Shown here: positions 16,218-30,152 of the stretch, piece by piece
How the letters are laid out: every line of letters begins with the position of its first letter
How positions within the stretch are numbered: the stretch's first letter is position 1
Source: an uncultured Candidatus Bathyarchaeia archaeon
Lineage (GTDB): Archaea > Thermoproteota > Bathyarchaeia > Bathyarchaeales > Bathyarchaeaceae
Reading direction: 5' to 3'
Length of the DNA: 64,000 nt
Assembly: GCA_964347995.1 (NCBI GenBank)
Contig: CAYGBA010000001.1
Location: 2,244-66,243, forward strand
Made by a program: the position numbers and the translations under genes
Notes under the pieces: model-generated
Database searches by the model: none
The model's input: only the letters and a program-made list of their open reading frames with translations
What the model was told of the DNA's origin: nothing

Positions 16218-16633
16218 CTGTCTTGTCCTCTTACTGCAGTTATGCGCGCGTTGGGAAAAAGCTTTTCGCCGAAAAGAGAGCCTTTTAGAATTCTGAGTTA
16301 CTTATGCAACCCAGTGTTCGATTCTTGCGAGTAAGATTGGATCACCTACAGCTGTAAAGCCGAAGTTCGTCGCGCTTACATTGTGAAAAACCGTAGAGTG
16401 CGCGTCTCCTAATTAAGGGTTGCTGGAAAAAATGCGCCCGTTCAAAAGAAATGTTTAATCTGATTCTTATTGGGCCTTTTTTCCTGAACTGATTGTGCGA
16501 CAGATTTTTATCTAAATTTACCACGATCTAACATTCTGAGAGTAGTAAAGCCGTTGTCGTTTTACTGATTCTTACTTCATAAATGATAAATCAATTGCAT
16601 GCCTGCAACGTAAAGCACGTGCATATGAGTTAG

Positions 16634-16963
16634 GTGCATACTGCCGTACATTTGGGGAATTGTTGGATGGTAGACAAGGCTGAAATTTCAGGATATGTTG
16701 TCTTGATTGTAGGCGTGGCTCTGTTGGTTTTCACGTTCATTAACGCCTATCTTTTCCTCATAGGAGTGTTGAATATCTCAATCGGGGATTGGGTGGCCGA
16801 ACTTGGGGAGCTTTTAGGTCCGTTGGTCGAAACTTGTATACGAGTAATGTACCTTGGCATAATGGGATGGATCGGCGCTTTACTAACCAAAAGAGGAATA
16901 GACTTCCTTTCCAAGCTTCCGCGAGGAGTCAAGAAGGAAGCTGAGAAGAAATCTGGCGACTGA
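16634..16963 (+). CDS. Small membrane protein (2-3 TM), unknown function
   Basis: Hydrophobic segments are GYVVLIVGVALLVFTFINAYLFLIGV and VMYLGIMGWIGALL. It is the first gene of a tight three-gene unit. Confidence 0.5.
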   Translation: MHTAVHLGNCWMVDKAEISGYVVLIVGVALLVFTFINAYLFLIGVLNISIGDWVAELGELLGPLVETCIRVMYLGIMGWIGALLTKRGIDFLSKLPRGVKKEAEKKSGD

Positions 16964-16978
16964 AGGAAAGAAGGGCTG

Positions 16979-17773
16979 ATGAGACAGTCCATTCGAGCGT
17001 TGGGCTGGGCGAGCAAGATACTCTGGATTGCAACTACAGTTTTCATGGTCACCTCTTTATATTCCCCTTTGAAACTGATCTTGGAAAGGCAGATAGACAT
17101 CGGATCGCCCCAACCTTCCTTTTCAAATGGAACAATGACAGTATCCATACCCTTCGTTGTAAATAACACAGGTTTTTACGACATATCTGACTTGAACGTG
17201 ACAACATCGGCTACAGATTGCAACAGCACGTTAATCTCAACATCAACAACTTCTTTGGAGAACATACCGAGAGGTGGAAGCGTCGACGAAACTCACGCGA
17301 TCTCCGTGAGCATAGATGACATCATATCAAAGAATCTGACTTACCTATTACTTAACGACGCGACGATTATCTTGGATGTATGTGTAGGACTGAAAATCGC
17401 ACATGTCATCCCTCTCAAAGTGTCAACAAGTGTAAACATGTCTTGGGGAGCGCCTTTCTACAATGCTTCCGTAAGGATAGCGGATTTCCCAGAGCCATAC
17501 AACTCCAGTCATTATGTTATAGACGCATGGTCAAGCTTTGAAAATCATTCGCCCTTCGACGTGAACGGAACGCTAAGACTTGAAATCTTTGACGAGAGCG
17601 AGGAATTTATAGGTGTCTGGATCGGTCAGGTAAGTGCTCCCTCAGAAGGGGAATACAGTGAGAAGGTGACCATGTACGTTAAGCCTTCCCAGTTCTCTGG
17701 GACTGGAGAAGTACATGTCTATTTTGAAGGTCCACTGGGCAGTGTAGAGTGGTGGTTTACATATGGCGGATGA
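16979..17773 (+). CDS. Membrane-anchored extracellular protein with about 10 N-glycosylation sequons (beta-sandwich/LEA_2-like guess)
   Basis: It has an N-terminal TM (ILWIATTVFMVTSLY) followed by a soluble domain. By my count there are 10 N-x-S/T sites. It overlaps the next gene by 11 nt. Confidence 0.55.
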   Translation: MRQSIRALGWASKILWIATTVFMVTSLYSPLKLILERQIDIGSPQPSFSNGTMTVSIPFVVNNTGFYDISDLNVTTSATDCNSTLISTSTTSLENIPRGGSVDETHAISVSIDDIISKNLTYLLLNDATIILDVCVGLKIAHVIPLKVSTSVNMSWGAPFYNASVRIADFPEPYNSSHYVIDAWSSFENHSPFDVNGTLRLEIFDESEEFIGVWIGQVSAPSEGEYSEKVTMYVKPSQFSGTGEVHVYFEGPLGSVEWWFTYGG

Positions 17774-18242
17774 AGGAAACTTGAAATCAGTTTTGAAGAA
17801 GATAATGTCGAACGTGACAAAGGCGGTCTTGAAAGGGTTTATTATGTTTCTTCTAACTTATCTCTTGCCAACGCTGGTGGTAGAGGCTATGGTGCCTTCT
17901 AGCTCACCTTTTGGGATGCCTTCAGAGTATACGACTCTCTTGTACGTGTTCTCGGCAATAGTCGTCTTCTTCACCGTTGTCACCGAACTCTTCTCTGGAA
18001 CCATTCTTCAGCACGCCTTCTGCGTCGGTAGAGCAATAGTCCTGATAGTTTACTTTGTCTACGCCCTGAATGGCGGCATCTTTGTGTCGACTTTTCAAAT
18101 TCCCGGGCAACAGCAAGTTATACGTATTTTTGCCAATCTGAGAGCTTTCCTTGCCGTGCTAATCTTTATTAATCTTTTAGGATTTGCAAAGGGTATGCTT
18201 CAGGTCATAAACTTCCTGTCTGGAAAAGCTGACCTGAAATAG
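17763..18242 (+). CDS. Integral membrane protein (about 4 TM), unknown function
   Basis: Four hydrophobic stretches. Translationally coupled to the upstream gene by overlap at 17763-17773. Confidence 0.55.
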   Translation: MADEGNLKSVLKKIMSNVTKAVLKGFIMFLLTYLLPTLVVEAMVPSSSPFGMPSEYTTLLYVFSAIVVFFTVVTELFSGTILQHAFCVGRAIVLIVYFVYALNGGIFVSTFQIPGQQQVIRIFANLRAFLAVLIFINLLGFAKGMLQVINFLSGKADLK

Positions 18243-18316
18243 CTCCAATGAGGAATGGAGTTCCACACCTGGGAAAATTCTTGAGTCGCGGTTGGGATGT
18301 AAGTAGCTCGTTTTCA

Positions 18317-19564
18317 CTAGGATTTATTGACTTCGAGAACGATTCCAGCAGCTGCGGCTCCTTTCTTGCCTTCGACTACGAATCTTCCAAGCTGAGGGAT
18401 TTCAGAATATTTTTCTAAGCATGTTGGGTCGAGGGTGGAGAATTTCACCCTGGCGATGTCTCCATCTTTTAGGCCACCATGAAGCTTCTGTTGTATTGCC
18501 AGATTGATGGGGTCCATTTTTTCTAAGATTTTGTGGACTTTGCATTTTCTTTCTGTGGTTCCGTAGCGGATTTTTAGTACATCGTTGTTTTCTATCTGGA
18601 TATCTGTCAGCACTATTATCTGTGCTGGGAAGCTTTGAATGGTTTCTGCGTTGTTTTGGGGGTAGCTGATCACTTCGCCTCTTTTAATTTGGTCTACTCC
18701 GTCTACAGAAAGCTCCACGGAGTCGCCCGGTTCAGCTCTGTCTACTTCTTTTCCGAAAAGCTCTATCTTCCTTATCAGCCCTTTCTGTGTGGATGGACTG
18801 AAGAAGAGGTCTTTTCCTGTTTCTATGCTTCCCGTTTCGATCTTGCAGATGATGATCTTTCCTTTCTCTGTATCATACACGTCTTGGACGAAGCCTCTCA
18901 GCGGCTTGTCTGTTGGTAGAGCCGGGGGAGTGATGTTCTGATCTAGAGCGTCGATGAATGTTGTACCATCATACCATGCCATTTTTCGGGACTTCTTGAA
19001 AACGTTGTCTCCTCTCAAGGCGGATAATGGAATGGTTGGAACGTTCTTGTAGTCCAGAGAATCTAGGAATATGTTTAGCCTTTCCAAGATTTCTTTGAAT
19101 ATTGACTGATCATAGTTTATTTCGTCCATCTTGTTTACTGCAACGACTAGTTGCTTGATCCCAAGGGTCTTCACGAGATATGCGTGTTGTTTAGTTTGGT
19201 CTTTTATTCCCTCTTTTGCGGAGATTACTAGGACGGCTGCGTCGGCTTGCGATGCCCCTGTTATCATGTTTTTGATGAATTCCTTGTGGCCTGGGCAATC
19301 GATGATTGTGTAGAGATGCTTTTTGGTTTTGAATGGCGTATGCATGATGTCTACGGTTAGTCCGCCTTTTCTTTCCTCTTCTAGGCTGTCTAATAGGTAT
19401 GAGAATTTGAATCGTCCTCTGCCGGCTCTTTGGGTTTCTTCTTTGATTTCCTGGATTTTTTGTTGTAGGATGGCTTTGGAGTCGTAGAGGAGTCTCCCTA
19501 TGAGGGTGGATTTCCCATGGTCTTTGTGGCCTATGATTACGAGGTTTATGCTGGATTTGGTCAT
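18317..19564 (-). CDS. cysN: CysN-like translational-type GTPase (EF-1alpha/EF-Tu superfamily; sulfate adenylyltransferase subunit 1-like)
   Basis: G motifs are GHKDHGKST, DCPGH, NKMD and SAL. The segments STLIGRLLYDSKAI, VVAVNKMDEINYDQSIF and PLSALRGDNV resemble CysN more than canonical aEF1A. It lies in an operon with a CysD-like gene. Confidence 0.6.
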   Translation of the reverse strand: MTKSSINLVIIGHKDHGKSTLIGRLLYDSKAILQQKIQEIKEETQRAGRGRFKFSYLLDSLEEERKGGLTVDIMHTPFKTKKHLYTIIDCPGHKEFIKNMITGASQADAAVLVISAKEGIKDQTKQHAYLVKTLGIKQLVVAVNKMDEINYDQSIFKEILERLNIFLDSLDYKNVPTIPLSALRGDNVFKKSRKMAWYDGTTFIDALDQNITPPALPTDKPLRGFVQDVYDTEKGKIIICKIETGSIETGKDLFFSPSTQKGLIRKIELFGKEVDRAEPGDSVELSVDGVDQIKRGEVISYPQNNAETIQSFPAQIIVLTDIQIENNDVLKIRYGTTERKCKVHKILEKMDPINLAIQQKLHGGLKDGDIARVKFSTLDPTCLEKYSEIPQLGRFVVEGKKGAAAAGIVLEVNKS

Positions 19565-20253
19565 CTTTTGGCACTTTTTATTGTTTTATGGAAGTCTGTT
19601 ATTTTTGGCAGGTGGAGATTTAGCTTTCTGTTTGTTGAGTAGTAGCCCTTTTGGGTGTGGTCGCCATATCTTCCGATGGCTTTCATGCCGTGGTCGGAGA
19701 TGATGAGCGTGAGGTCATTTGTATTTCTGATTCTTGCGGCTAGGTTTTCTAGTTCTGTGTAGACTCTTTTCATTTTTGTGTAGACGCCGAAGCTTAGGTG
19801 TCCTATGGCATCTGCTAGGTTGAAGTAGGCCATTAGTAGATCGTATTGTTCTAGGCTGTTGAGGAATTCTGTTTTGTTTTCTTGGTGGTTTTTCCAGATG
19901 AGTTTGTCGTATTCTTGGATTGTAGCGTTTTCGTTGAAGTAGGCTTTTAGGAGTTGTCTTTCTTTTTTGTGGTTTTCTTGTTTGTAGGCGTATGCTGGGA
20001 CGTCTATGGCTTTTGGGGAGTCAAAATAACAGAGGAAGGTTTCTTCTCTCTTCAGTTGGAATTCCCACTGGCCTTCTATAGGGATTTTTGCTTCCATGTT
20101 TTTGCCTGTGAGGAAGGAGGCCCAGAGAACTATGGTCCTTGGTTCCTTGAAGTTTGTGATGTCGGTTTGACCGTGCTCTTCTTGCATTAGGTTTTTGCAG
20201 TTGAATGTTTTGACTAGGTTTTGGTCTAGCGCGTCGAGGGCTAGGATTATCAA
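19561..20253 (-). CDS. Small alkaline-phosphatase-superfamily protein (nucleotide pyrophosphatase/phosphodiesterase-like core)
   Basis: ILALDALD (N-terminal metal Asp), EPRTIVLWASFLTGK (nucleophile Thr context, compare PT.T.P.H..L.TG), and IISDHGM...GDH. Its stop overlaps the cysN-like start by 4 nt. Confidence 0.6.
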   Translation of the reverse strand: MIILALDALDQNLVKTFNCKNLMQEEHGQTDITNFKEPRTIVLWASFLTGKNMEAKIPIEGQWEFQLKREETFLCYFDSPKAIDVPAYAYKQENHKKERQLLKAYFNENATIQEYDKLIWKNHQENKTEFLNSLEQYDLLMAYFNLADAIGHLSFGVYTKMKRVYTELENLAARIRNTNDLTLIISDHGMKAIGRYGDHTQKGYYSTNRKLNLHLPKITDFHKTIKSAKR

Positions 20254-20266
20254 TGTGGGTCCTGTC

Positions 20267-20764
20267 CTACATGTATCCTAGACCGCGTAGTTTCTGCATC
20301 ATGTAAGCCTTCTCTTTGTCCTGGGCTCTGCCTGCGCGTTCCGAGATTTTTGTGATTTTTAGCTCTTGGATGATCTGGTCTATGGTTCGCGCGTCTGATG
20401 AGATGGGTACGGTACAGGGTTGGCATCCTAGGCTTCTGTAGCGTTTCCCGTTTTTTGCGAAGTAGAGGGGGTTTATGGGGAGGTTTTCTTCTTTGACGTA
20501 TTGCCAGGCTTCGAGTTCTGTCCAGTGGAGGATGGGGTGGACTCTCATGTGTGAGTAGTCTTCTGCGGGTTTTACGTATATGTCCCACATTTCTGCGGGT
20601 TGGTTTTTGTAGTCCCATCTGAAGTCTTCGTCTCTGGGGGAGAAGATTCTTTCTTTGACTCTTATGCCGTGTTCGTCTCTTCTTATGGAGACGAGGAGCG
20701 CGTCGAACTGTTCTTTTTCTATTGGTTCTTTAATGAGTTGCCCTGCGTGTTTAATCCCGCCCAT
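20267..20764 (-). CDS. cysD: CysD-like protein lacking the N-terminal PP-loop half (truncated sulfate adenylyltransferase subunit 2; possibly a pseudogene)
   Basis: The 165 aa align with roughly the last 190 residues of E. coli CysD as I recall it (ARRDEE..R.KERI.S.RD...RWD.KNQ.PE.W..Y; W.ELD.WQYI; R.LGC.P.T; TSERQGR..D...MELKKRQGYF). No SGGKDS-type PP-loop is present, and all three upstream frames carry stops. Confidence 0.65.
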   Translation of the reverse strand: MGGIKHAGQLIKEPIEKEQFDALLVSIRRDEHGIRVKERIFSPRDEDFRWDYKNQPAEMWDIYVKPAEDYSHMRVHPILHWTELEAWQYVKEENLPINPLYFAKNGKRYRSLGCQPCTVPISSDARTIDQIIQELKITKISERAGRAQDKEKAYMMQKLRGLGYM

Positions 20765-21224
20765 AGGCTTGTCAGAATGGAAATTGATTTTGGTTTCTCA
20801 AATGTATGGTTGGCGGGGTTGCACAAAATGGATAATTCGCCGATTTCTGACGTTGAGTGTTTTGACAGCTTTGTTGAGCTCTTTTGGATGAACAGTTCCG
20901 AATTCGTCCGATCAGCCGAAGTCCGACACATCGGCAATTTTTCTAAAATATTCGCGTGCATTGTAACTCAGAGCTTGGATAAATCTAATTGCCAAACTAT
21001 TGATCCTAGGGATGACAAAAATCCATGTTAAATCATACCAATCTGGTAATACCTTTGAAAGCCATTCAACGGTCGCCGGAAGCGGAGCTTATTACTCCTT
21101 CTAATTTTCAATCTAGATGTTTTCCGTATTGCCGTTCAAAATAGTCGTAACGGCAAGAGTCCAATACAATTAAGGCATCCCAGTCCCATTCTTTTATCTT
21201 AGTTATTTGAAATTTTTCGGGTTA
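20765..21224 (-). pseudogene. Decayed gene remnant; contains an AP-superfamily N-terminal-like fragment
   Basis: My minus-strand translation of 21221-21111 gives PEKFQITKIKEWDWDALIVLDSCRYDYFERQYGKHLD*. The LDS.RYDY motif is the N-terminal metal-binding motif of the NPP/AP family. Downstream frames give short protein-like stretches (FIQALSYNAREYFRKIADVSDFG*, SDEFGTVHPKELNKAVKTLNVRNRRIIHF) broken by stops. The 560-bp gap has no intact ORF. Confidence 0.35.
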
Positions 21225-21327
21225 CAAGTATCTTCTGAAAGGGAAAATAGCGTTTCTGATTCTAGACTCAACAGAAGTCCTCAAATCAAGCATTCTACTA
21301 ACCCCTCGTCAGCTGTCACATAATATC

Positions 21328-22083
21328 CTAAATGGTTTTTGTTGTTATCCCTCGTTCTTTCTGATTAAACAAGGGTAGTCTAGATAAGGCTAGAAGCGTT
21401 CCGAGAAAGGCGAGGATAGAGCCGAAATTGCGGGATAATCCCACATATTTTGTCATGTGGACAAGTCTTTGTAAACAATACTTCACATAGCTTTGTTTCT
21501 CTTCTGATGCAATTCTGTCTTTGATTGCGAGTGCATGAAACTTCTTAACGATTTCCATGACACGGTATAACCTGATATCTACTCCACATACATCATCGCA
21601 ATAGTATATGCGCCATCCCTCGCCTTCCATGCGCCTAACCCAGTTTCGGTCACAGCCCGGCTCATTTAAATACTCACCCACTTCTCTCCAAGCCTTCATA
21701 TTGAAAAGCATTACAAACCCAGCGTGTCCTTTAAGAAAAGAATTCTCGTCATATACAACTCTTCCAGCTACTGCACCGACTTTTCCACTCATCAGCTTAA
21801 GCATTTTAGTCAATGCATCTTTCTTGAGAATAATATCCGCGTCGGATTTCAAAACATAATCATATTCTTTCAAAGCTTTCATTCCAACGTTCACTGCTCT
21901 ATAGCCAGGTCTTACGCCAGACACTAGGACACATGGAATGTCTAAGTCACATATCGATTGGTAAGCAAGCTTCGTTGTCGCTTCTCCAAGGGTCGCGATG
22001 AATCCCGCAATCCTTTCTTTCACACGGTTTTGGTCTGTTCGACGTTCAAAATTGCCTACTCGACGATGATTATGATTCAACAT
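21328..22083 (-). CDS. GT2-like glycosyltransferase with an atypical or short N-terminus
   Basis: RAVNVGMKALKEYDYVLKSDADIIL (DxD-type motif) and a C-terminal TM segment. Confidence 0.5.
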   Translation of the reverse strand: MLNHNHRRVGNFERRTDQNRVKERIAGFIATLGEATTKLAYQSICDLDIPCVLVSGVRPGYRAVNVGMKALKEYDYVLKSDADIILKKDALTKMLKLMSGKVGAVAGRVVYDENSFLKGHAGFVMLFNMKAWREVGEYLNEPGCDRNWVRRMEGEGWRIYYCDDVCGVDIRLYRVMEIVKKFHALAIKDRIASEEKQSYVKYCLQRLVHMTKYVGLSRNFGSILAFLGTLLALSRLPLFNQKERGITTKTI

Positions 22084-22242
22084 GAAAATCGACCCAGTCT
22101 TAAATCAACATAATTGCCGCTACCTCGATAATATTGAGATTAAGGGCATTGAAATTCCTTTCGAAAAAATGTGAAATTTCCGGGGCATTCACGTAGCATT
22201 TAAGTTTCCAAAAGTTCAATAATCTTTCTTAGGCGACTCAAC

Positions 22243-23319
22243 GTGCGAGTTCTAATGCCCCTATGGTCTGTAAATCTCTTAGACCAAGGTTTTGTCGCCC
22301 CACTGACTAGAAGCATATCAAAACAATTAGGATCACAACCAGAGCTCCTAAACATAGCTCATCTCAGAGGAGTACCAAAAAAAGAATGGAAGCAGCACTT
22401 CACCTTTCACAAACTCAACTTGCCCTACAAGTTCATCAAAAGCAAGATGGCACGGCTCTATCTCTCAAGACGAGAAATCTACAACCAAATAGGAAACGTC
22501 GATGTAGAAGTCATCTTCACCCTCAGCGACCCATGGGCACAGGAATTCTCCAGATACTGCTCCAGAAAAATGGGCATCCCCTACGTGGTAAGGTTAAGAG
22601 GAAATGCAAAAGAAGTCAGAAAGGTCACCCATGTCAGTTGGATAAAACAAAAAATAATGGACTACCTAGATGCAAGAAGCCTGAAGGAAGCAAACTTGGT
22701 CGTACCAAACTCAAACGACCTGGCCAAAAAAGCCGAGGAATGGGGGGTAGAAGAAGATAAGATCACAAGCCCTGTCTACAACGGCGTTGACGCCCACGTG
22801 TTCAAACCAATGAACATTGAAAGGTCAAGCAAATTCACCGTCGCCTACGCCGGCAGGATAAGCCCAGAAAAAAGGGTCACTCATCTACTTAAGATTGCAG
22901 AGTCTCTCCAAAACGTATATTTCCTGATAGCTGGAAAGAAACAGATGTCCATGTCCTTCCCAAGCACCATAAACTATCTGGGAGGGCTACCATTCTCTGA
23001 GATGCCAAAATTCTACAACAAAGCAGACCTCATAATCCTCCTCAGCGCCACCGAAGGCTTCCCAAACATCGTCCTAGAGGCATACGCATGCGGAAAACCA
23101 GTCCTAGTAACAAAAGAAGCCTTTCCTAAAGAGTTGAAGCTCTTTGGCTCTATAGCAGAACTAAACGAATTCGAGTCAGAAATAAAAGCCCTGATGAAAT
23201 CCGACCTTGACAATCTGGGTCGCCAAGCAAGGGCTTATGTCAAGAAGCATTATACATGGGAAGAGTTCGGCAAATCTATAGTCAAACACTTTGAGAGGTT
23301 GACAACGCAACGTACCTAA
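22243..23319 (+). CDS. GT4 (GT-B, group 1) glycosyltransferase
   Basis: SATEGFPNIVLEAYACGKPVLVT is the characteristic EX7E-region motif. Size is 358 aa. Confidence 0.8.
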   Translation: MRVLMPLWSVNLLDQGFVAPLTRSISKQLGSQPELLNIAHLRGVPKKEWKQHFTFHKLNLPYKFIKSKMARLYLSRREIYNQIGNVDVEVIFTLSDPWAQEFSRYCSRKMGIPYVVRLRGNAKEVRKVTHVSWIKQKIMDYLDARSLKEANLVVPNSNDLAKKAEEWGVEEDKITSPVYNGVDAHVFKPMNIERSSKFTVAYAGRISPEKRVTHLLKIAESLQNVYFLIAGKKQMSMSFPSTINYLGGLPFSEMPKFYNKADLIILLSATEGFPNIVLEAYACGKPVLVTKEAFPKELKLFGSIAELNEFESEIKALMKSDLDNLGRQARAYVKKHYTWEEFGKSIVKHFERLTTQRT

Positions 23320-23332
23320 ACTTAACGCAAAA

Positions 23333-24244
23333 CTAGCTTCTTTTCAGAACACCCCTCATCCAGTCGTAAGTCATCTCTAAGCCTTCTTCAATCGATGTCT
23401 TGGGACTCCAATTCAAGATCCTCTTCGCCTTCGTTATATCTATGTGTTCTTTTTTCACATTCCCCGGCCTGTCAGGAATAAACTCCAAGGCAACCTTCTC
23501 ATTCGGATTCGCCATCCGCCAACACAGCTCGGCCAACTCCAATGTAGATACCGACTCTTCTCCAGCTATGTTAACAACCTCATCTTTCACTTCCATCGCC
23601 TTAACGGTCGCATCCACCAGATCCTCAACAAATATGTAAGACCGCGTATGAGCCCCATCACCATGAGCCTGCAGAGTCTCATTTCTTATCGCTCTCGAAA
23701 GAAAGATGAAAGGCGCCAACGCCTCACGCATCCTAGGTCCATAAACAGTGGAGTACCGCAAAATGTTACAATCTAAACCATAAAGTTGGCGATAGCCCTT
23801 AACCACGTACTCACCCGCAAGCTTCGTCGACCCATAAATCTCAGTAGGTCTCAAAAGAGCATCCTCGTGAGTCGGAAAAACATCAGTATCACCATACACG
23901 CAACAAGTCGAAACATACGTCAAAAAGCAATCAAACCGCCTGCACATCTCAGCAACTACTCCAGTTCCAAAAACATTCGCTTTAACCGTTTCGATGCTGT
24001 GTTGCCTTGCATAATTCACATCTGCAACAGCCCCAACGTGAAAGCAATAACCAGGCTCACGCTTCGAGAAAAGCGCCCCCAGTTCTTGCTGGCTTGTGAA
24101 ATCAGTTTCGTGCGAATGATAGTTTCTATTCGCGAAATCGCTAGATTTCAGGTCACATCCAACAACTGTATGCCCCAATTCCAATAGTTTTTCAACAAGA
24201 TACCGACCAATAAAACCACTGCTTCCAGTAACTAAGACCTTCAT
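23333..24244 (-). CDS. NAD-dependent sugar-nucleotide epimerase/dehydratase (extended SDR)
   Basis: MKVLVTGSSGFIGRYL (GxxGxxG) and YGSTKLAGE (YxxxK). Confidence 0.8.
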   Translation of the reverse strand: MKVLVTGSSGFIGRYLVEKLLELGHTVVGCDLKSSDFANRNYHSHETDFTSQQELGALFSKREPGYCFHVGAVADVNYARQHSIETVKANVFGTGVVAEMCRRFDCFLTYVSTCCVYGDTDVFPTHEDALLRPTEIYGSTKLAGEYVVKGYRQLYGLDCNILRYSTVYGPRMREALAPFIFLSRAIRNETLQAHGDGAHTRSYIFVEDLVDATVKAMEVKDEVVNIAGEESVSTLELAELCWRMANPNEKVALEFIPDRPGNVKKEHIDITKAKRILNWSPKTSIEEGLEMTYDWMRGVLKRS

Positions 24245-24424
24245 CGCTTATTCACCTAAACCTTGAAATTTATCCTATTCGCCCAAAACATTTCAGTCAA
24301 GACTAAAAAAGCTTGCCTAATGATAACTCGCAAGCCCGTGCAGTTAGAAGACTGTTTATTAGCATCCCTAGCCTAGAGAATCGAACAGGTGACAAATCTG
24401 CTTGATGTCTAGGGCGAGATCAAA

Positions 24425-25249
24425 GTGAACACTGCCGAAAAGGAGCAGAAGATTTCTGTGGTTATCCCAGTTCACAACGAAGAAGAAACACTGAATCAAT
24501 GTCTAAACGCTGTCAGGAAACAAAAAGTCGACGAGATAATCCTCACCCTAGACAGGTGCACGGACAATTCCGAAAAAATAGCAGAAAAACAGGCAAAAAA
24601 GGACCCAAGAATCAAAATCTTCCATCTAACCAGACACAAGTTCAAAACAAACTACCTAGCAGAAACAGTGAACATTGGAATCTCTAACGCTCAAAATGAG
24701 ACAATATTAATCGCCGAAGCCGACACCGTCCTCAGCTCCAACTACGTCTCCACACTACTACCCCATCTGAAAAGACCTGTAGTCTCAGTAGCCGGAAGAT
24801 ACGTTCCCCTTCACAAAAGACCACTGCATTTTCTTGAAACCATCACAGGGACAGGCAGACTCCTCTTCCATGAAATATGGCGGGAACTAGACGGGTTCCA
24901 AGACATCCTAGCATGCGACACCCGCTTCGACCTAGAACTAATGAAAAGAAACTTCAAAACCAAGATCGTAGGCAAAGCCCTTGTGTATGACCTAAGAGAT
25001 TATTCAATGAGACAGCTAGCCATCCGCACAATTCGAAGAGGAAAGGGTCGCAGACAGAACGCCCAATCATTCATCTTCATGCTCGGCCACGGCCTATACT
25101 GTCTCACCAAGACCCCGTTTGGCCTTGTGGAGTTGCTAGGTAACATCGCAGGATACGTCACAGCCAACGAAAGAACATCAAGGGATGGTATGAGGCGATA
25201 TGAAAGAGAGAGAATCCGCGAGATACTCCGAAAACTAACACACCATTGA
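24425..25249 (+). CDS. GT2 glycosyltransferase
   Basis: ISVVIPVHNEEETLNQCLNAVRKQ and IAEADTVL (DxD-like). Confidence 0.75.
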   Translation: MNTAEKEQKISVVIPVHNEEETLNQCLNAVRKQKVDEIILTLDRCTDNSEKIAEKQAKKDPRIKIFHLTRHKFKTNYLAETVNIGISNAQNETILIAEADTVLSSNYVSTLLPHLKRPVVSVAGRYVPLHKRPLHFLETITGTGRLLFHEIWRELDGFQDILACDTRFDLELMKRNFKTKIVGKALVYDLRDYSMRQLAIRTIRRGKGRRQNAQSFIFMLGHGLYCLTKTPFGLVELLGNIAGYVTANERTSRDGMRRYERERIREILRKLTHH

Positions 25250-25297
25250 TACTACGACCGCAACATATAAGATAAGCATTGTGAAAAGACAATTCCC

Positions 25298-26248
25298 TTG
25301 CCTCAAAAGGTGATTAAGACGAATATATTAATAACTGGAGGCGCAGGCTACATTGGATCAGCACTAACCAGAGAACTACTAAAAACCGAGGACACAGTAA
25401 ACACAATCGACGTGAAATCTCCGCCGAGAGAAATTGCTGCAAAAATCCATCACATAACGCAGGATCTAACGAACTTTGAAAACCTTAAAAATGATCTGCA
25501 ACCGCTCGAAACCGATGTGGTTGTGCATCTAGCGGCGTTAGTCAGCGGAGACCCCTCTCAGGTATTAAGAGTAAACGTAGGCGGAACCGCAAACCTTCTA
25601 GAGACCCTGCGACCTCACCGACCCAAACTGATCATAGTAGCGTCAACGGCGGCTCAGCTTTACAGGAACGCTCAATACATGCCCATCGACGAAAAACACC
25701 CAATAACACCAGTAACGACTTACGGGCTCTCAAAACACCTAACCGAAGAGATCGCCAGATTCTACTCCAGAGTCCACTCAATGCCAATAACTATATTCCG
25801 TCAGACAAACGTTTATGGTTCTGCTCCAGTCCAGAAGTATACCGTGATAAACAGATTCGTAGACGATGCTCTAAGAAACGGCCAAATAACAATCTTCGGA
25901 GACGGAAGACAGGTAAGAAACTTCATACATATAGATGATCTCATCCAGTACTACATGGAGGTAATACATTATCCCTCACCCGAAAGACTAGCGGGCCAAG
26001 TCTTCAACATAGCGGGACCCGAAGAATGCCAAATAAAACCCCTAGCAGAAAAAATAGCATCGCACATAACTTCAGAAACAAACAAAGAAGTAAAAATAGT
26101 CCACGGACCGCCCTCAATCCCACCAGAACAAGACATACACATCTTCAACATATCATCCCGAAAAGCCCAGCTATTCTTCAACTATAAACCAAAGATAACA
26201 CTAGCCGAGGGGATACACAAAACGATAGCTGAAATGCACACACTGTAG
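25298..26248 (+). CDS. NAD-dependent sugar-nucleotide epimerase/dehydratase (extended SDR)
   Basis: ILITGGAGYIGSAL and YGLSKHLTE (YxxxK). Confidence 0.8.
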   Translation: MPQKVIKTNILITGGAGYIGSALTRELLKTEDTVNTIDVKSPPREIAAKIHHITQDLTNFENLKNDLQPLETDVVVHLAALVSGDPSQVLRVNVGGTANLLETLRPHRPKLIIVASTAAQLYRNAQYMPIDEKHPITPVTTYGLSKHLTEEIARFYSRVHSMPITIFRQTNVYGSAPVQKYTVINRFVDDALRNGQITIFGDGRQVRNFIHIDDLIQYYMEVIHYPSPERLAGQVFNIAGPEECQIKPLAEKIASHITSETNKEVKIVHGPPSIPPEQDIHIFNISSRKAQLFFNYKPKITLAEGIHKTIAEMHTL

Positions 26249-26252
26249 AAAG

Positions 26253-27419
26253 GTGAGCAAGATAACCGAACTAATAAAGGTGGCAATCCCCTCAGTGGGA
26301 GAAGAAGAAATAGAAGCAGTAGCTGAGGTGTTGAGGTCAGGACGCTACGTCCAAGGACCCAAAGTGAAGGAGTTCGAAGAGAAGTTCGCAGACTACATAG
26401 GAACAGAACACGCCATAGCAACAAACAGCGGCACCGCTGCACTCCACATAGCTCAAGCCGCAGCCGGAATAGGTCCAGGAGACGAGGTTATCGTTCCTGC
26501 ATTAACATTTTTTTCTACAATCACCTCAGTGATTCATAACAATGCCATACCAATCTTCGCAGATATAGACACTGAAATCTACTGTTTAGATCCTGAAGAC
26601 ATCGAAAAAAAGATAACTAAGAAAACAAAAGCCATCATCCCAGTTCATCTTTACGGCCACCCGGCTGAAATGGACCAAATAATAGAAATCGCTCAGACTC
26701 ACAATCTTCTGGTTATTGAGGATGCAGCTCAGGCCCATGGAGCACAGTACAAGGGGCAAAAGGTAGGATCTATAGGCGACACTGGTTGCTGGAGTTTCTA
26801 CGCCACAAAGAATATGACAACAGGAGAAGGAGGAATGATCACCACTGATGATTCAAACATTGCGGAGAAGGCGGGACGCATCAGAAGTCACGGAATGACC
26901 TCTCGTGACGACCATGCCGTGATAGGATACAACTACCGCATGAACGAAATTGCAGCGGCAATAGGACTAATTCAACTTTCTAAACTCGATAGGCTCAATC
27001 AGATAAGAACAAGGAATTCCATGTATCTGCTTAAAAACCTTGAGAGCGTCGATTGGCTTGAAACCGCAAAGATAAAGCCTTATGTTAAGCATGCATTTTT
27101 CTGGTGTCCTGCGCGGGTGAATGAGGAAAAGTTGGGCATGAAGACAAAGGACTTGGTAGCTACCCTTAGGGAAAGAGGTGTAGAAGTGAGACACAGATAT
27201 GTGGCACCACTTTACAAGCAACCTATGCTTATCAACCAAAATGTTTATCCTAAAAAATGTCCTTTCAGCTGTCCATTCTATGGAAAAGAAATAGATTATT
27301 CCGGTTTTAAGTGTGCAAACGCGGAGAAAATAGCTGGAAAAATGATAGGGCTACCGAATCATCCTAAATTGAGAAGAGAAGAATTAGACACGGTAATATC
27401 AACTATCAAAAATGTCTAG
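26253..27419 (+). CDS. DegT/DnrJ/EryC1/StrS-family sugar aminotransferase (PLP)
   Basis: ATNSGTAALHIA, IPVHLYGHPA, EDAAQAHGA and SFYATKNMTTGEGG (PLP-Lys context). Confidence 0.85.
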   Translation: MSKITELIKVAIPSVGEEEIEAVAEVLRSGRYVQGPKVKEFEEKFADYIGTEHAIATNSGTAALHIAQAAAGIGPGDEVIVPALTFFSTITSVIHNNAIPIFADIDTEIYCLDPEDIEKKITKKTKAIIPVHLYGHPAEMDQIIEIAQTHNLLVIEDAAQAHGAQYKGQKVGSIGDTGCWSFYATKNMTTGEGGMITTDDSNIAEKAGRIRSHGMTSRDDHAVIGYNYRMNEIAAAIGLIQLSKLDRLNQIRTRNSMYLLKNLESVDWLETAKIKPYVKHAFFWCPARVNEEKLGMKTKDLVATLRERGVEVRHRYVAPLYKQPMLINQNVYPKKCPFSCPFYGKEIDYSGFKCANAEKIAGKMIGLPNHPKLRREELDTVISTIKNV

Positions 27420-27528
27420 CAATTTTTGAGGAGGACTCATCATTACCCCAAAAATATATGTAAGCAAGTACGCTGAGATAGGAAAAAATGTTGAAATTGC
27501 ATATGGAGCAATAGTCGAAAAGAGTGCT

Positions 27529-28227
27529 ATGATCGAAGACGATGTGAAAATAGGGGCTTATACTGTAATTCACTCTCACGCTAAGATCAAAAGCAATGTT
27601 ACCCTTGGAAGCCACTGCGTCATAGGTCACCCTTCAAAAAGCGAACTAATAGGAATCGACTATTCGTATAAGGACCCCAAGTTGAAAGATCTTATCATAA
27701 GAGACCCCGTAACAATTATCGGAGAGGGGAGCGTTGTAAGGTCTGGGTCTATTATCTATACCCACACTAAGGCTGGGAAAAAACTGGGCACTGGGCATCA
27801 CGCTATCATCAGAGAACATACAAACCTCGAAGAATACTGCTTAGTTGGATCACACACAGTTTTGAATGGATACTCGAGATTTGGAGAACGAACAAGAATC
27901 AACACTGGGTGCGCGTTACCTCAGTCAATGCGGATAGGGAAAGGGGTTTTTGTAGCTCCGCTAGTTGCCTTCTCTGACAACGAGAGAGCCACGCCAGGAG
28001 AGGGAAACGAGGGGGCCATCGTACAGGACTTTGTAAGGATCGGGATTGGGGCGAAGATTTTACCTAAGATAGCTATAGGAAAAGGAGCGCTAATCGGCGC
28101 CGGAGCAGTCGTTACAAGGGATGTCCCCGAGAGGGCAATCGTCTACGGAGCGCCTGCCGACATCAAGGGATACTTGGACGAAAAGGAACTAAATAAGTAC
28201 ATTGATTCAATTATGAAATGGATTTGA
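27529..28227 (+). CDS. Left-handed beta-helix (hexapeptide-repeat) sugar N-acetyltransferase; the true start is probably upstream (about 27436-27442)
   Basis: Hexapeptide repeats are IEDDVKIGAYTVIHSHAKIKSNVTLGSHCVIG and, later, IGIGAKILPKIAIGKGALIGAGAVV. The frame stays open and repeat-like for 33 codons upstream of the first ATG. Confidence 0.75.
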   Translation: MIEDDVKIGAYTVIHSHAKIKSNVTLGSHCVIGHPSKSELIGIDYSYKDPKLKDLIIRDPVTIIGEGSVVRSGSIIYTHTKAGKKLGTGHHAIIREHTNLEEYCLVGSHTVLNGYSRFGERTRINTGCALPQSMRIGKGVFVAPLVAFSDNERATPGEGNEGAIVQDFVRIGIGAKILPKIAIGKGALIGAGAVVTRDVPERAIVYGAPADIKGYLDEKELNKYIDSIMKWI

Positions 28228-28290: not shown

Positions 28291-29391
28291 TTATTTCATC
28301 TCCCTAGAAGAATAGTATTTCATAAGGATCTTGGCAATTTCAGGTCGCATCTTTTTTTCCGACGGCATAGTCGCTTGTCTGATTGTTTCTCTCAGTTTTG
28401 TCATACTCATACTAACATGGTTTTCATCGCGGTGTCCGCAGGTTCTGGTCGTGACTATTAGGTCGCAACGCTTACAGTAGAAGGCTTCTTTGAATTTGAT
28501 CGGTTCTATCCCTAAATCCAACTCGTCAAACATTTCATGCGCCCTATAAGGTTCATATAGCCCTCCAATTCCAGCCATGTCTCGACCAATCACAAAGTGG
28601 GTGCATCCGTAATTCTTCCTTACGATGGCAAGGAAAATCGCTGCTTTGGGTCCTGCGTATCGCATGCCTATTGAAAGGGTGTTAAGGTATACACGATCTT
28701 CAGGATAGTAATTGTCTATGAGAAGTCTGTAAGATTCGACTATCGCTTCTGGCGGGAAATCGCTGGATTTCAATTTTCCTATAACCGGATGGATAAGCAG
28801 CCCATCAACTTTTTCCATGACGTTTCTTTGGAGATATTCATGAACCATGTGTGGGGGATTTCTCGTTTGGTAGCCAGCGACAGTCTTCCAGTGACGCTTT
28901 TTGAAAGCTTCCCGAGTGCCCAGCGGTGTTGATTCTTGTGAAACTCTGTGAAAAAGGTCGATCATGCCTCCAAGCGCAGTTTCACCCATGTTGTAGATAT
29001 CGCTGACATTCGGATGACTTCGATCTGTAGTACCGTAAACTTGTATTGCCAGTTCTTTCTTGTTATACTGAAATTTCTCTTCTAAATGCATAATTGCAAT
29101 AGACTTACCGTTATATCCTAGGACTAGGTCATCACCTTCCCCTAATTCTCTTACAATTTTCGCGTTTTTTTCCCCTGAAGGACAAAATATGATCGGTATT
29201 GTCCAAACAATGTCATTTGCCAGTCTTTCCTTGTAAATTACGTTTATGTAGTCTTCTCGGCACATGAAGGCTTCTAGGGGACTGAAGGCTCCTATGGCAA
29301 TTTTTTCTACATCTAAGGCTGTCGTCCAATCTACTTCAATTTTTGGCAATTCGCTTGTTTCAATAGACTCGCTGTTTACGATTCTGTTCAC
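28291..29391 (-). CDS. sat: Sulfate adenylyltransferase (ATP sulfurylase, homo-oligomeric Sat type) with C-terminal Cys-rich tail
   Basis: AGYQTRNPPHMVHEYL (QxRNPxHxxH), VIGRDMAGIG, and the tail CKRCDLIVTTRTCGH. Confidence 0.85.
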   Translation of the reverse strand: MNRIVNSESIETSELPKIEVDWTTALDVEKIAIGAFSPLEAFMCREDYINVIYKERLANDIVWTIPIIFCPSGEKNAKIVRELGEGDDLVLGYNGKSIAIMHLEEKFQYNKKELAIQVYGTTDRSHPNVSDIYNMGETALGGMIDLFHRVSQESTPLGTREAFKKRHWKTVAGYQTRNPPHMVHEYLQRNVMEKVDGLLIHPVIGKLKSSDFPPEAIVESYRLLIDNYYPEDRVYLNTLSIGMRYAGPKAAIFLAIVRKNYGCTHFVIGRDMAGIGGLYEPYRAHEMFDELDLGIEPIKFKEAFYCKRCDLIVTTRTCGHRDENHVSMSMTKLRETIRQATMPSEKKMRPEIAKILMKYYSSREMK

Positions 29392-29435
29392 GAGTTTGTT
29401 GCCGTGTGGAAGCGGCAGACTTCATCCATCCTGTT

Positions 29436-30152
29436 TCATTTATGGGCGTGTAGACCGCATTCTTTCTTTTCTGGTGATTCCCACCACCATCTTCCAGCCC
29501 TGATGGCTTCTCCAGGTTTGATGGGTCTCGTACAGGGTTCACAGCCGATGCTGGTGTAACCTTTGTCGTAAAGCGTATTGTGAGGCACATTGCTTTTCTT
29601 GACGTACTCCCAGACCTTGTCATCGGACCAGTCAGCCAAGGGGTTTATCTTCACGATGCCTCCATGTGCATCATCGATCTCGATTTTCTTAACTTCTGTT
29701 CTTGTGACGCTTTGTCCTCTCCTTAACCCCGTGATCCATGCATCTAGGCCACTGAGGGCTCTCATCAGGGGCTCAACTTTTCTTATCTTGCAACAAAGTC
29801 TACGGTTACTAACACTCCCGTAGAACAGGTTCATCCCACGTTCTCTAACCATTTTTTCAACTGAAGCCGTATTTGGATAATAGACTTCCATCTGCAAACT
29901 GTATCTCGCTCGTATCCGCTCCATCAAACTGTATGTTTCTTGGTCAAGCCTACCAGTGTCGAGTGTGAATACCCTGAACTTAGGGTCTATTTTCGATAGC
30001 ATGTCAATCAGAGTGACATCTTCTACACTAAAACTTGAAGAGAGTGCCAGCCTAGGGTGCAACTCATCCACAGCCCATTTCAATATCTCCTGTGGTTCTT
30101 TGTTTTCAAAACTCTCAGCGAGTTTTTCTACTTCGCCTTTGCTTAGCTTCAT
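29436..30152 (-). CDS. cysH: APS/PAPS reductase (CysH), Fe-S-type signature
   Basis: The C-terminal ECGLH motif, plus CCKIRKVEPL and GCEPCT cysteines typical of 4Fe-4S APS reductases. Confidence 0.85.
   Translation of the reverse strand: MKLSKGEVEKLAESFENKEPQEILKWAVDELHPRLALSSSFSVEDVTLIDMLSKIDPKFRVFTLDTGRLDQETYSLMERIRARYSLQMEVYYPNTASVEKMVRERGMNLFYGSVSNRRLCCKIRKVEPLMRALSGLDAWITGLRRGQSVTRTEVKKIEIDDAHGGIVKINPLADWSDDKVWEYVKKSNVPHNTLYDKGYTSIGCEPCTRPIKPGEAIRAGRWWWESPEKKECGLHAHK

Follow-up and report, generated by a model that had tools for sequence, protein, structure and literature searches.

Introduction

The closest described relatives of the locus reported here are the CysD-CysN ATP sulfurylases of bacteria, known from the cysDNC operon of Escherichia coli, from Pseudomonas syringae (PDB entry 1ZUN) and, as CysD-CysNC, from Mycobacterium tuberculosis. 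In archaea, CysDN pairs have been described in anaerobic methanotrophic archaea (ANME) and a few methanogens; their CysN proteins fall apart from elongation factor EF-1alpha, and an assimilatory role was inferred from genomics (Yu et al. 2018, PMC6286981). The words 'phosphatase' and 'phosphodiesterase' are absent from the text of that paper, which mentions no such neighbour gene, and our literature searches returned no description of a gene of the alkaline phosphatase (AP) family in cysDN operons. CysN has been derived from archaeal EF-1alpha and is listed under bacteria only (Atkinson 2015, PMC4342817). Here we examine a locus of this kind in a 64,000-nucleotide stretch of DNA from an uncultured Candidatus Bathyarchaeia archaeon (contig CAYGBA010000001.1, positions 2,244 to 66,243; hereafter the window), where a 5'-truncated cysD, a small gene of the AP superfamily whose 230-aa product is here called AP230, and a gene for a CysN-type GTPase lie side by side on the minus strand.

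A preliminary description of this stretch regarded the cluster as aberrant, with the AP gene inserted into it, and offered two options: a decaying ATP sulfurylase made redundant by a second enzyme, Sat, or a repurposed system composed of the GTPase, the C-terminal domain of CysD and the phosphoesterase. In this study, the locus was compared with related loci from other genomes, which are referred to below by number (L001 and so on). We consider it likely that the window carries the broken downstream remainder of a conserved sulfate-activating operon, and that the intact module makes adenosine 5'-phosphosulfate (APS), which AP230 consumes.

Results

AP230 is a conserved member of a CysD/CysN-type operon

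The locus comprises the following features (positions are those of the window).

18317..19564, minus strand: CysN-type GTPase resembling archaeal elongation factor 1A (aEF1A), 415 aa, intact, with GTP_EFTU, D2 and D3 domains (Pfam)
19561..20253, minus strand: AP230, a predicted minimal AP-superfamily enzyme resembling nucleotide pyrophosphatases/phosphodiesterases (NPP), 230 aa, intact, TTG start
20267..20764, minus strand: 5'-truncated cysD remnant, 165 codons, of which only about 20267-20733 derives from cysD (residues ~113-267 of the 267-aa orthologs)
20731..20745: rearrangement junction, at which sequence identity with cysD of the orthologous loci breaks down
20765..21206, minus strand: decayed 'CRYD-type' AP-superfamily gene, N-terminal ~150 codons, recognized by three-frame translation and tblastn to intact homologs

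As had been stated in the preliminary description, the three minus-strand genes are tightly packed, and the coordinates of the open reading frames (ORFs) agree: cysD and the AP230 gene are separated by 13 nt (20254-20266), and the AP230 and GTPase genes overlap by 4 nt (19561-19564). The same spacing was found in the orthologous loci L001 and L002, in which a cysD of 267 aa is followed after a 13-nt gap by a 230-aa gene of the Phosphodiest family and then, with a 4-nt overlap, by a 416-aa GTPase. Because the spacing is identical in these relatives, the packing of the three genes is not due to chance.

One genome per GTDB species was scanned with the AP230 alignment as query, and orthologs with 42% identity or more were recovered from Bathyarchaeia, Aenigmatarchaeota, Nanoarchaeota, Altiarchaeales, Thermoplasmatota, Methanosarcinales, Patescibacteria and Saccharibacteria; protein searches added Micrarchaeota and Woesearchaeota. 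All three genes were present together in 40 of the 51 related loci, and the arrangements were distributed as follows.

CysD-AP230-GTPase order (Bathyarchaeia and allies): 27 of 51 loci
CysD-GTPase-AP230 order (DPANN, candidate phyla radiation (CPR) and other lineages): 11 of 51 loci
AP230 and CysD-GTPase on opposite strands: 2 of 51 loci
Cut by a contig end: 5 of 51 loci
AP230 at a contig edge: 2 of 51 loci
AP230 and GTPase, CysD not nearby: 2 of 51 loci
CysD and AP230, GTPase not nearby: 2 of 51 loci

In relatives, the operon consists of a small ribbon-helix-helix (RHH)-like gene, cysD, AP230 and the CysN-type GTPase, and CysD is complete (~265-297 aa) in every other locus where the contig covers the gene. 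The CysD-GTPase-AP230 order parallels cysD-cysN-cysC of E. coli, with AP230 in the slot of CysC. AP230 is a conserved operon member in about 50 species and not an aberration of a single genome; this presence, together with the identical spacing in relatives, rules out a local insertion of the AP gene, and the earlier view of an aberrant cluster with an 'inserted' gene had to be abandoned.

Like the archaeal CysDN pairs of Yu et al., the module has a CysD that adjoins a CysN clustering apart from EF-1alpha; unlike in that account, AP230 is linked to the pair in the Methanosarcinales locus L052 and in about 50 other species. The resemblance to the bacterial CysD-CysN systems extends to a CysD ortholog that passes the PRK05253 model, a GTPase that groups with CysN, and a C-terminal ..GY(F/M) ending shared by E. 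coli and archaeal CysD. The module differs from the bacterial systems in that AP230 replaces APS kinase, its CysD is shorter (267 versus 302 aa), small RHH-like proteins with a CysD-like tail accompany it, and the Bathyarchaeial GTPase stays below the CysN cut-off; moreover, the CysD of the window is without its catalytic half.

Several loci depart from the common layout. The module of Bathyarchaeota B26-1 is split, with AP230, the GTPase and a small tailed protein on one contig (L019 4001-6166) and a small ORF and cysD on another (L084 2029-3177); given that cysD lies on a separate contig, AP230 and the GTPase form the tighter pair. At L022 2887-4675 and L034 892-3278, AP230 lies beside a longer CysD (290-297 aa, 56-59% identical, with the tail '..MRRLR[ST]LGYM'), and no GTPase was found within 4 kb downstream of these AP230-linked long CysDs. 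In the DPANN-like locus L042 (25-3464), a 280-aa ORF with homing-endonuclease-like DGDGY/DSDGY motifs precedes the CysN-type gene in place of cysD, a 426-aa ORF lies between the CysN-type gene and AP230, and a CRYD-type AP gene follows AP230.

The cysD gene of the window is truncated at a genuine junction

The 165-aa ORF covers only positions 117-301 of the 301 positions of PRK05253 (188.7 bits, under the cut-off of 195) and positions 93-175 of Pfam PAPS_reduct. A full-length CysD ortholog (P0003) passes PRK05253 with 338.5 bits versus 195, and CysD ortholog and 1zun_A match at 218 bits. As shown by alignment, the 267-aa orthologs carry the PP-loop as LWSTGKDST at residues 30-38; this loop is missing from the window ORF, which is without the first ~112 residues and begins at the equivalent of residue ~113, and stops occur in all three frames upstream of it. 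These analyses, which include the alignment to CysD and PAPS-reductase profiles that had been suggested as a check, bear out the original observation that only the C-terminal half of CysD is present. The retained part is 83-89% identical to 267-aa CysDs of Bathyarchaeia, its closest homologs, is syntenic with cysD of L001-L003 and adjoins the gene for the CysN-type GTPase, which identifies it as the orthologous CysD of the pair.

The boundary was located by comparison with the three relatives. Homology to L002 detected by blastn (88.5%, window 16623-20731) ends 339 nt into the L002 cysD; the boundary with L003 also lies at window position 20731, and that with L001 at 20722, 9 nt away. When the window was compared base by base with L002, identity fell away between ~20745 and ~20733. 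Synteny with L002 extends over more than 9 kb on the downstream side, and upstream of the junction no blastn homology was found between the window and L001-L003. The N-terminal half of cysD, the small RHH gene and a second EF1A-like gene were not found anywhere across the 64-kb window.

The edge of a variable island, where the junction is found, is a typical site of misassembly, and a chimeric join inside cysD was considered. We regard such an artefact as highly improbable. The junction and its flanks recur in Logan contigs of two sequencing runs, ERR2564001 and ERR2564004 (L004, 10.2 kb, 10 mismatches in 10,242 nt; L005, 6.1 kb, 2 mismatches in 6,064 nt; 99.9% identity), contigs from NCBI assemblies (73.4 and 71.7 kb) also encode the exact 165-aa product, and a one-residue variant of the same length was found in further assemblies. 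No repeats flank the junction in a repeat scan, and tRNA and Rfam scans likewise gave nothing relevant there. Because independent assemblies reproduce it, the junction is real. A normal, full-length cysD in related genomes had been named in the preliminary description as pointing to a local deletion or an artefact; cysD is indeed normal (267 aa) in the closest relatives, and the artefact is nonetheless excluded by the independent assemblies. All copies with the 165-aa product come from one population; the truncation is thus confined to that population, and the truncated state is shallow.

Sequences that might serve expression were lost as well. An SD-like (Shine-Dalgarno-like) GAGGGAG precedes cysD in L002, and the new ATG of the window has neither an SD-like nor a TATA-like signal upstream. 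In L002, the small RHH-like gene is also preceded by a palindromic, promoter-like region rich in AT, the equivalent of which is missing from the window. This near-palindrome (L002 4560-4641, TAATTAGATATAATTACATCTAATTA) stands just upstream of the RHH-like gene and may be the promoter or operator of the operon.

Judged from what it retains, the CysD remnant should be unable to adenylate sulfate: the reaction ATP + sulfate -> APS + pyrophosphate (PPi) is expected to be absent from the truncated protein, and the CysD/GTPase sulfurylase of the window locus would be inactive. APS synthesis should still be possible through Sat, which is encoded, next to an APS reductase, 8 kb from the remnant; both genes are intact.

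28291..29391, minus strand: intact homo-oligomeric ATP sulfurylase (Sat), identified by PRK04149 and Pfam ATP-sulfurylase/PUA_2
29436..30152, minus strand: intact APS reductase (CysH type), identified by TIGR02055 and PRK02090

Sat scores 435.6 on PRK04149 (cut-off 387) and 327 on TIGR00339 (cut-off 322.95), with the Pfam domains PUA_2 and ATP-sulfurylase both present, and the APS reductase scores 272.5 on TIGR02055 (cut-off 235.3) and 297.8 on PRK02090 (cut-off 154). Sat and this thioredoxin-type APS reductase (28291-30152) form an adjacent pair beyond the glycan island described below, and the pair could supply sulfite as well as APS.

Another possibility is that the operon functions in trans, with an intact cysD and a small regulator gene elsewhere in the genome and the fragment a mere relic, which would count against our reading of a broken sulfate-activating operon. 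The split arrangement of B26-1 (L019, L084) and the absence of an adjacent cysD from L042 provide precedents, and the AP230 and GTPase of the window keep all family-invariant residues. Even so, we think this unlikely: the positional orthologs of the fragment are the operonic cysD genes of L001-L003, and within 64 kb there is no other cysD-like sequence besides CysH.

A second degenerate copy was encountered in another Bathyarchaeial metagenome-assembled genome (L087 1258-3500). AP230 is absent from it, the GTPase is in two pieces (residues 1-159 and 208-415), and cysD matches only residues 72-267 plus a weak trace of 1-19, with the PP-loop region unmatched. This copy is independent of that in the window. 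The module is evidently dispensable in some Bathyarchaeia.

A decayed gene of a different AP lineage adjoins the remnant

The 563-bp gap upstream of the cysD remnant (20765-21327) holds ..WDALIVLDSCRYDYF.. (second rendering ..KEWDWDALIVLDSCRYDYF..), after which come three stops and one frameshift; a start codon is missing. Intact homologs of this fragment, proteins of 272-331 aa, are encoded at L042 4771-5619 and at L054 209-1027 and 1175-2170 (tblastn E 1e-14 to 1e-18); the L042 homolog directly follows the AP230 ortholog, and those of L054 are two tandem copies. The CRYD-type proteins share the motifs ILDxCRYD ... S.T.EW ... H(Y/F).QPH.P ... DHG..GE. When two of them were scanned (282 aa from L042, 272 aa from L054), weak Sulfatase or PglZ matches were obtained, and Pfam and NCBIfam searches with the decayed fragment itself gave no significant match. 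The possibility that the fragment is a decayed AP230, or a decayed copy of the ~278-aa AP230 paralogs, was rejected, as tblastn with 19 paralogs gave nothing. On sequence grounds, the fragment is a dead AP-superfamily gene of a lineage distinct from AP230 and its ~278-aa paralogs; of the earlier proposal of a decayed AP-like paralog, the dead AP-superfamily gene stood and its origin as a copy of AP230 did not.

The decayed fragment shares the reading frame of the cysD remnant in its last segment, which indicates that two partial genes were fused in frame. No intact ortholog of the pseudogene, which would represent the arrangement before the rearrangement, turned up in a scan of metagenomes.

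Beyond the fragment lies the island, whose Pfam families were taken from the identical loci L004 and L005.

21328..28227: variable glycan-biosynthesis island, with a glycosyltransferase family 2 (GT2)-like gene, GT1, two NAD-epimerases and GT2

The island also contains aminotransferase-like and acetyltransferase-like ORFs, labels that come from reading their translations, and it shares no homology with the sequences that precede cysD in L001-L003. The 251-aa ORF directly upstream of the fragment (21328-22083) aligns only with short stretches in the middle of glycosyltransferase family 2/21 profiles and has no NCBIfam match; this ORF, at the edge of the island, may likewise be a damaged or a divergent gene.

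Selection on the remnant is consistent with a recent break

The ratio of nonsynonymous to synonymous substitution rates (dN/dS) between the remnant and three orthologs was 0.08-0.115, like that among the intact orthologs (0.09-0.106). When codon changes were counted by branch with L001 as outgroup, the window branch of the cysD remnant carried 10 synonymous and 4 nonsynonymous changes, compared with 16 and 7 on the L002 branch, and neutral evolution over the whole window branch was rejected (P = 5.5e-5). For the decayed neighbour, simulation indicated that ~150 codons are unlikely to acquire three stops before roughly 0.1 neutral substitutions per site have accumulated; given this stop count, the CRYD fragment has been dead far longer than the cysD remnant has been unconstrained. 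These data suggest that the break in cysD is recent and that the remnant has not experienced relaxed selection. The simplest reading is one of two events, in which an old pseudogene of the island was later joined to cysD.

These statistics also bear on the second option of the preliminary description, that of a repurposed system, in which the C-terminal half of CysD would be kept as a non-catalytic partner docking on the GTPase and would have a new function with AP230. The 165-aa ORF is intact with an ATG, its dN/dS is ~0.1 and its window branch counts 10 synonymous against 4 nonsynonymous changes, its ...KLRGLGYM C-terminal tail is preserved, and it has been spared the heavy decay of its CRYD neighbour; AP230 and the GTPase, which are the tighter pair elsewhere, are intact too. 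A recent break, however, explains the selection signal equally well. CysD is complete in every other locus where the contig allows it to be seen, the truncated form occurs in one population only (99.9% identity), and no recognisable translation or promoter signal precedes the new ATG. Without residues 1-112, moreover, the PP-loop is gone and the ATP-pyrophosphatase-type fold lacks its N-terminal part; what is left is unlikely to fold alone. We therefore consider repurposing quite improbable; orthologs have a complete cysD, and the missing PP-loop reflects a local rearrangement in one population. The tight coupling of the genes and the intact GTPase, which had been advanced against simple decay, proved to be a weak argument, as both were inherited from an intact ancestral operon and the selection statistics fit a recent break. 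The first option, a decaying sulfurylase made redundant by Sat, came closest to our conclusion: CysD is truncated, and an intact Sat could make the locus dispensable.

The GTPase is a CysN-type partner that resembles aEF1A

The earlier report of a CysN-like GTPase with intact motifs was confirmed. The motifs GHKDHGKS, GGLTVD, DCPGH, NKMD and SAL were read directly, so that G1-G5 are intact, and the protein has the three-domain architecture of EF-Tu (GTP_EFTU, D2 and D3/eEF1A_C in Pfam). It is 87% identical to the L002 ortholog. Its best sequence matches in the PDB are the aEF1As 3WY9, 1JNY and 4CXG (336-342 bits, 42-44% identity; 342 bits and 44% for 3WY9), compared with 205 bits for 1zun_B and 30% identity for E. 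coli CysN. It nevertheless missed the EF-1alpha cut-offs (TIGR00483, 399.5 versus 540.1; PRK12317, 433.7 versus 502). The CysN model TIGR02034 (cut-off 336.1) was also missed, at 296 by the window GTPase and at 302-305 by Bathyarchaeial orthologs, whereas module GTPases of DPANN, CPR, Thermoplasmatota and Altiarchaeales pass it (363-376 versus 336.1).

In a neighbour-joining tree, a distance method (409 columns, 200 bootstraps, rooted on EF-Tu), which sampled one bacterial CysN (E. coli) and three aEF1As, all CysD-linked GTPases and E. coli CysN formed a clade with 99% bootstrap support, and the three aEF1As fell outside it. The Bathyarchaeial GTPases (window, L002, L007-L031) formed a short-branched subclade with 100% support. 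A clustering of the GTPase with canonical aEF1A, which the preliminary description had named as a possible outcome, was thus not observed, and the EF-1alpha cut-offs together with the tree placement rule out its being a canonical aEF1A. The window GTPase shares the three-domain architecture of the aEF1As and is closest to them in sequence; unlike them, it is encoded in an operon with CysD and not with translation genes, scores below their cut-offs and groups apart from them in the tree. By these sequence comparisons it is classified as a CysN-type partner that is unusually aEF1A-like. The short-branched, aEF1A-like GTPases of Bathyarchaeia bear on the published origin of CysN from archaeal EF-1alpha (PMC4342817), on which they may be informative.

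AP230 is predicted to be a minimal NPP-like enzyme

That a 230-aa AP-superfamily protein with metal and nucleophile motifs lies between the other two genes had been noted from the sequence, and the profile and alignment data agree. AP230 passes Pfam Phosphodiest (PF01663) with 29.4 bits versus a cut-off of 23, and D7, T40, D148, H152, D187, H188, D198 and H199 are invariant in 103 homologs. These residues were putatively assigned to the NPP ligand set by motif spacing, independently of structural superposition; Thr is followed by TG at +9/+10, which is the spacing of the NPP nucleophile motif. A first AlphaFold2 model built from 24 close homologs was discarded (pLDDT 54.7); the model from the 103-sequence alignment reached a pLDDT of 97.6 and a pTM of 0.93. 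When this model was compared with the PDB by Foldseek, the top matches were ENPP6, ENPP5, ENPP4, ENPP1 and ENPP3, snake-venom phosphodiesterase and autotaxin, followed by phosphonoacetate hydrolase (PhnA), cofactor-independent phosphoglycerate mutase (iPGM) and a sulfatase; the probability of the matches to ENPPs, PhnA, iPGM and the sulfatase was 1.00 or near it. The A2 profile gave only insignificant iPGM matches (E 0.3) against PDB sequences, and NCBIfam made no assignment for AP230; the JGI name for it is 'AlkP superfamily pyrophosphatase or phosphodiesterase'.

AP230 thus shares with the NPP/ENPP family (PF01663) a score above the gathering threshold, its best fold matches and the invariant Asp/His set, and differs from it in its size (230 aa, against ~380 or more for NPP catalytic domains) and in the modest TM-scores (0.45-0.54). 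Sequence and model together indicate a minimal, NPP-like member of the AP superfamily whose active site is apparently complete and which has no close characterised relative. It is probably cytoplasmic, as no signal-peptide-like N-terminus was obvious by eye. A profile search of 1.84 billion representative proteins returned 768 matches at E <=1e-3 and 109 at <=1e-30, which delimits a compact family. All matches are stand-alone proteins of ~230-380 aa; no domain fusion hinting at function was found in this library, and the longest of the top 150 has 382 aa.

A C-terminal tail is shared by CysD and small proteins of the module

The CysD of the module ends in ...AYMMQKLRSLGYM, and E. coli CysD in ...MELKKRQGYF. 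In almost every module locus, one to three small proteins of 50-131 aa are encoded that have an acidic stretch and an IK.RL[KR].LGY[ILM] end, which resembles the CysD C-terminus '..MQKLRSLGYM'. Examples lie at L001 7758-7985, L002 4642-4869, L012 2285-2533 and 2751-2981, L045 1539-1727 and 1766-1963, and L019 5948-6166. Two of these proteins that were scanned had only marginal matches to NikR-type ribbon-helix-helix proteins (E 0.014 and 0.16), and the label 'RHH-like' is to be taken as a lead. The window has no small tailed gene, and only the CysD remnant keeps the tail there.

The LGY tail is also fused to the enzyme in 27 of 150 representative AP230-family proteins, mostly paralogs of 286-324 aa; it is absent from the AP230 of the operon itself. 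Tailed family members include those of Hadarchaeota L054 (3974-4951) and the proteins P0379, P0388, P0389, P0391, P0394 and P0409. From its recurrence in these sequences, the tail could be a shared docking peptide, for which the CysN-type GTPase would be the obvious candidate receptor. A possible analogy is offered by 3WY9, aEF1A bound to the C-terminal peptide of a ribosomal stalk protein.

The module occurs near permease and glycan genes

The commonest neighbour of the module is a TauE/SafE-family permease, found at 11 of 30 surveyed loci and at some of them inside the operon, which fits an uptake of sulfate or a related oxyanion. Such genes lie inside or beside the module at L043 2381-3136, L034 1790-2548, L052 907-1752, L086 10695-11474 and L009 6378-7184. 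Genes for NAD-epimerases, large Phosphodiest- or Sulfatase-family proteins, glycosyltransferases and flippases also recur beside the module, and sulfatase-family (PF00884) genes are frequent. The module lies within glycan-biosynthesis clusters in the window, in one Saccharibacteria genome and in one Micrarchaeota genome. No APS kinase was found within ~4 kb of any module locus, and neither the APS_kinase nor the Sulfotransfer family of Pfam is represented among the annotated module neighbours.

In two Thermoprotei clusters (L056 283-4350, L079 541-4795), a distant AP230 paralog (28-32% identical) is grouped with an APS kinase and glycosyltransferases. Both contain a polytopic membrane protein, read as a flippase, that has no Pfam match, and no canonical sulfotransferase was seen in either.

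Discussion

The events at the window locus can be pictured as follows. A rearrangement at the border of a hypervariable surface-glycan island would have joined an already dead CRYD-type gene, in frame, to about codon 113 of cysD, and would thereby have removed the PP-loop half of CysD, the small regulator gene upstream and the promoter region of the operon; AP230 and the GTPase would still be intact because the break is recent. In the intact module, a TauE-type permease, often in or beside it, would import sulfate, and CysD would make APS, powered by GTP hydrolysis on the CysN-type GTPase. AP230, a putative NPP-like enzyme with a binuclear metal site and a Thr nucleophile, occupies the slot held by APS kinase (CysC) in bacterial cysDNC and would consume APS, pulling an unfavourable reaction forward. 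Most likely, the sulfuryl group would be transferred or released so that cell-surface glycans can be sulfated.

A mechanistic precedent may be found within the AP superfamily. The group transferases (the phosphoethanolamine transferases EptA/MCR-1, and LtaS) and the sulfatases take a phosphoryl-type or sulfuryl group onto a Ser, Thr or formylglycine nucleophile and pass it to an acceptor or to water. AP230 could act by analogy; unlike AP230, EptA/MCR-1 and LtaS are membrane-anchored and use lipid donors, and no sequence-level membership of AP230 among them was found. We know of no AP-fold enzyme that uses APS as donor. Agl7 is needed for sulfation of a lipid-linked sugar in Haloferax, and the main text of the report on it gives no family annotation for Agl7.

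AP230 might instead be an accessory pyrophosphatase or nucleotide pyrophosphatase, or a phosphatase of 3'-phosphoadenosine 5'-phosphate (PAP) or 3'-phosphoadenosine 5'-phosphosulfate (PAPS), which would pull or tidy APS formation and neither consume APS nor transfer sulfate. The NPP-type fold and ligand set and the JGI name agree with such a role, and removal of PPi pulls the ATP sulfurylase equilibrium. NPPs, however, hydrolyse free PPi poorly, and no APS kinase that could make PAPS or PAP is encoded within ~4 kb; moreover, AP230 takes the CysC slot in the CysD-GTPase-AP230 order, and AP230-family paralogs recur in glycan clusters. We give the accessory role a small but appreciable chance.

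Several further points weigh against an APS-consuming AP230 in a recently broken operon. An NPP-type attack on APS would merely hydrolyse it. The fold matches of the AP230 model in the PDB are remote (E ~5e-5, TM 0.45-0.54, 11-15% identity). The remnant is a clean ORF of 165 codons with its own ATG and no relaxed constraint, next to a CRYD gene of similar length that is heavily decayed, a contrast that implies either two separate events, as assumed here, or a remnant still under selection. The dN/dS check gave values for the remnant like those of intact orthologs, and for AP230 a ratio of nonsynonymous to synonymous changes of 13:11 on the window branch versus 11:20 on the L002 branch, a difference that is not significant (P = 0.18). 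Finally, redundancy of the locus with Sat is no more than plausible.

A bolder form of the proposal is put forward tentatively, and the odds are against it as a whole. AP230 would be the third subunit of a sulfate-activating complex of archaea and CPR in which APS is used directly, allowing PAPS-independent sulfation of surface glycans with neither an APS kinase nor a canonical sulfotransferase; a shared receptor, be it the CysN-type GTPase or another, would also recruit CysD, AP230-family enzymes and small RHH-like regulators via the common C-terminal docking tail '...IK.RL[KR].LGY[FILM]'.

The truncated cysD itself represents ordinary gene loss at the strain level and is of small importance. 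The more interesting result is that the AP gene is the conserved third member of a widespread CysD/CysN module, in which CysDN sulfate activation of many archaea and ultra-small bacteria is strictly linked to an NPP-like enzyme, and often accompanied by a TauE permease and by small regulator-like proteins with a tail. This module is embedded in surface-glycan clusters of organisms with reduced genomes, which to our knowledge are usually without sulfur assimilation. If AP230 does consume APS, the module would provide a route to sulfated cell-surface molecules without PAPS, and AP230 would be a candidate for the enzyme of archaeal glycan sulfation, which, as far as we know, has so far not been identified.

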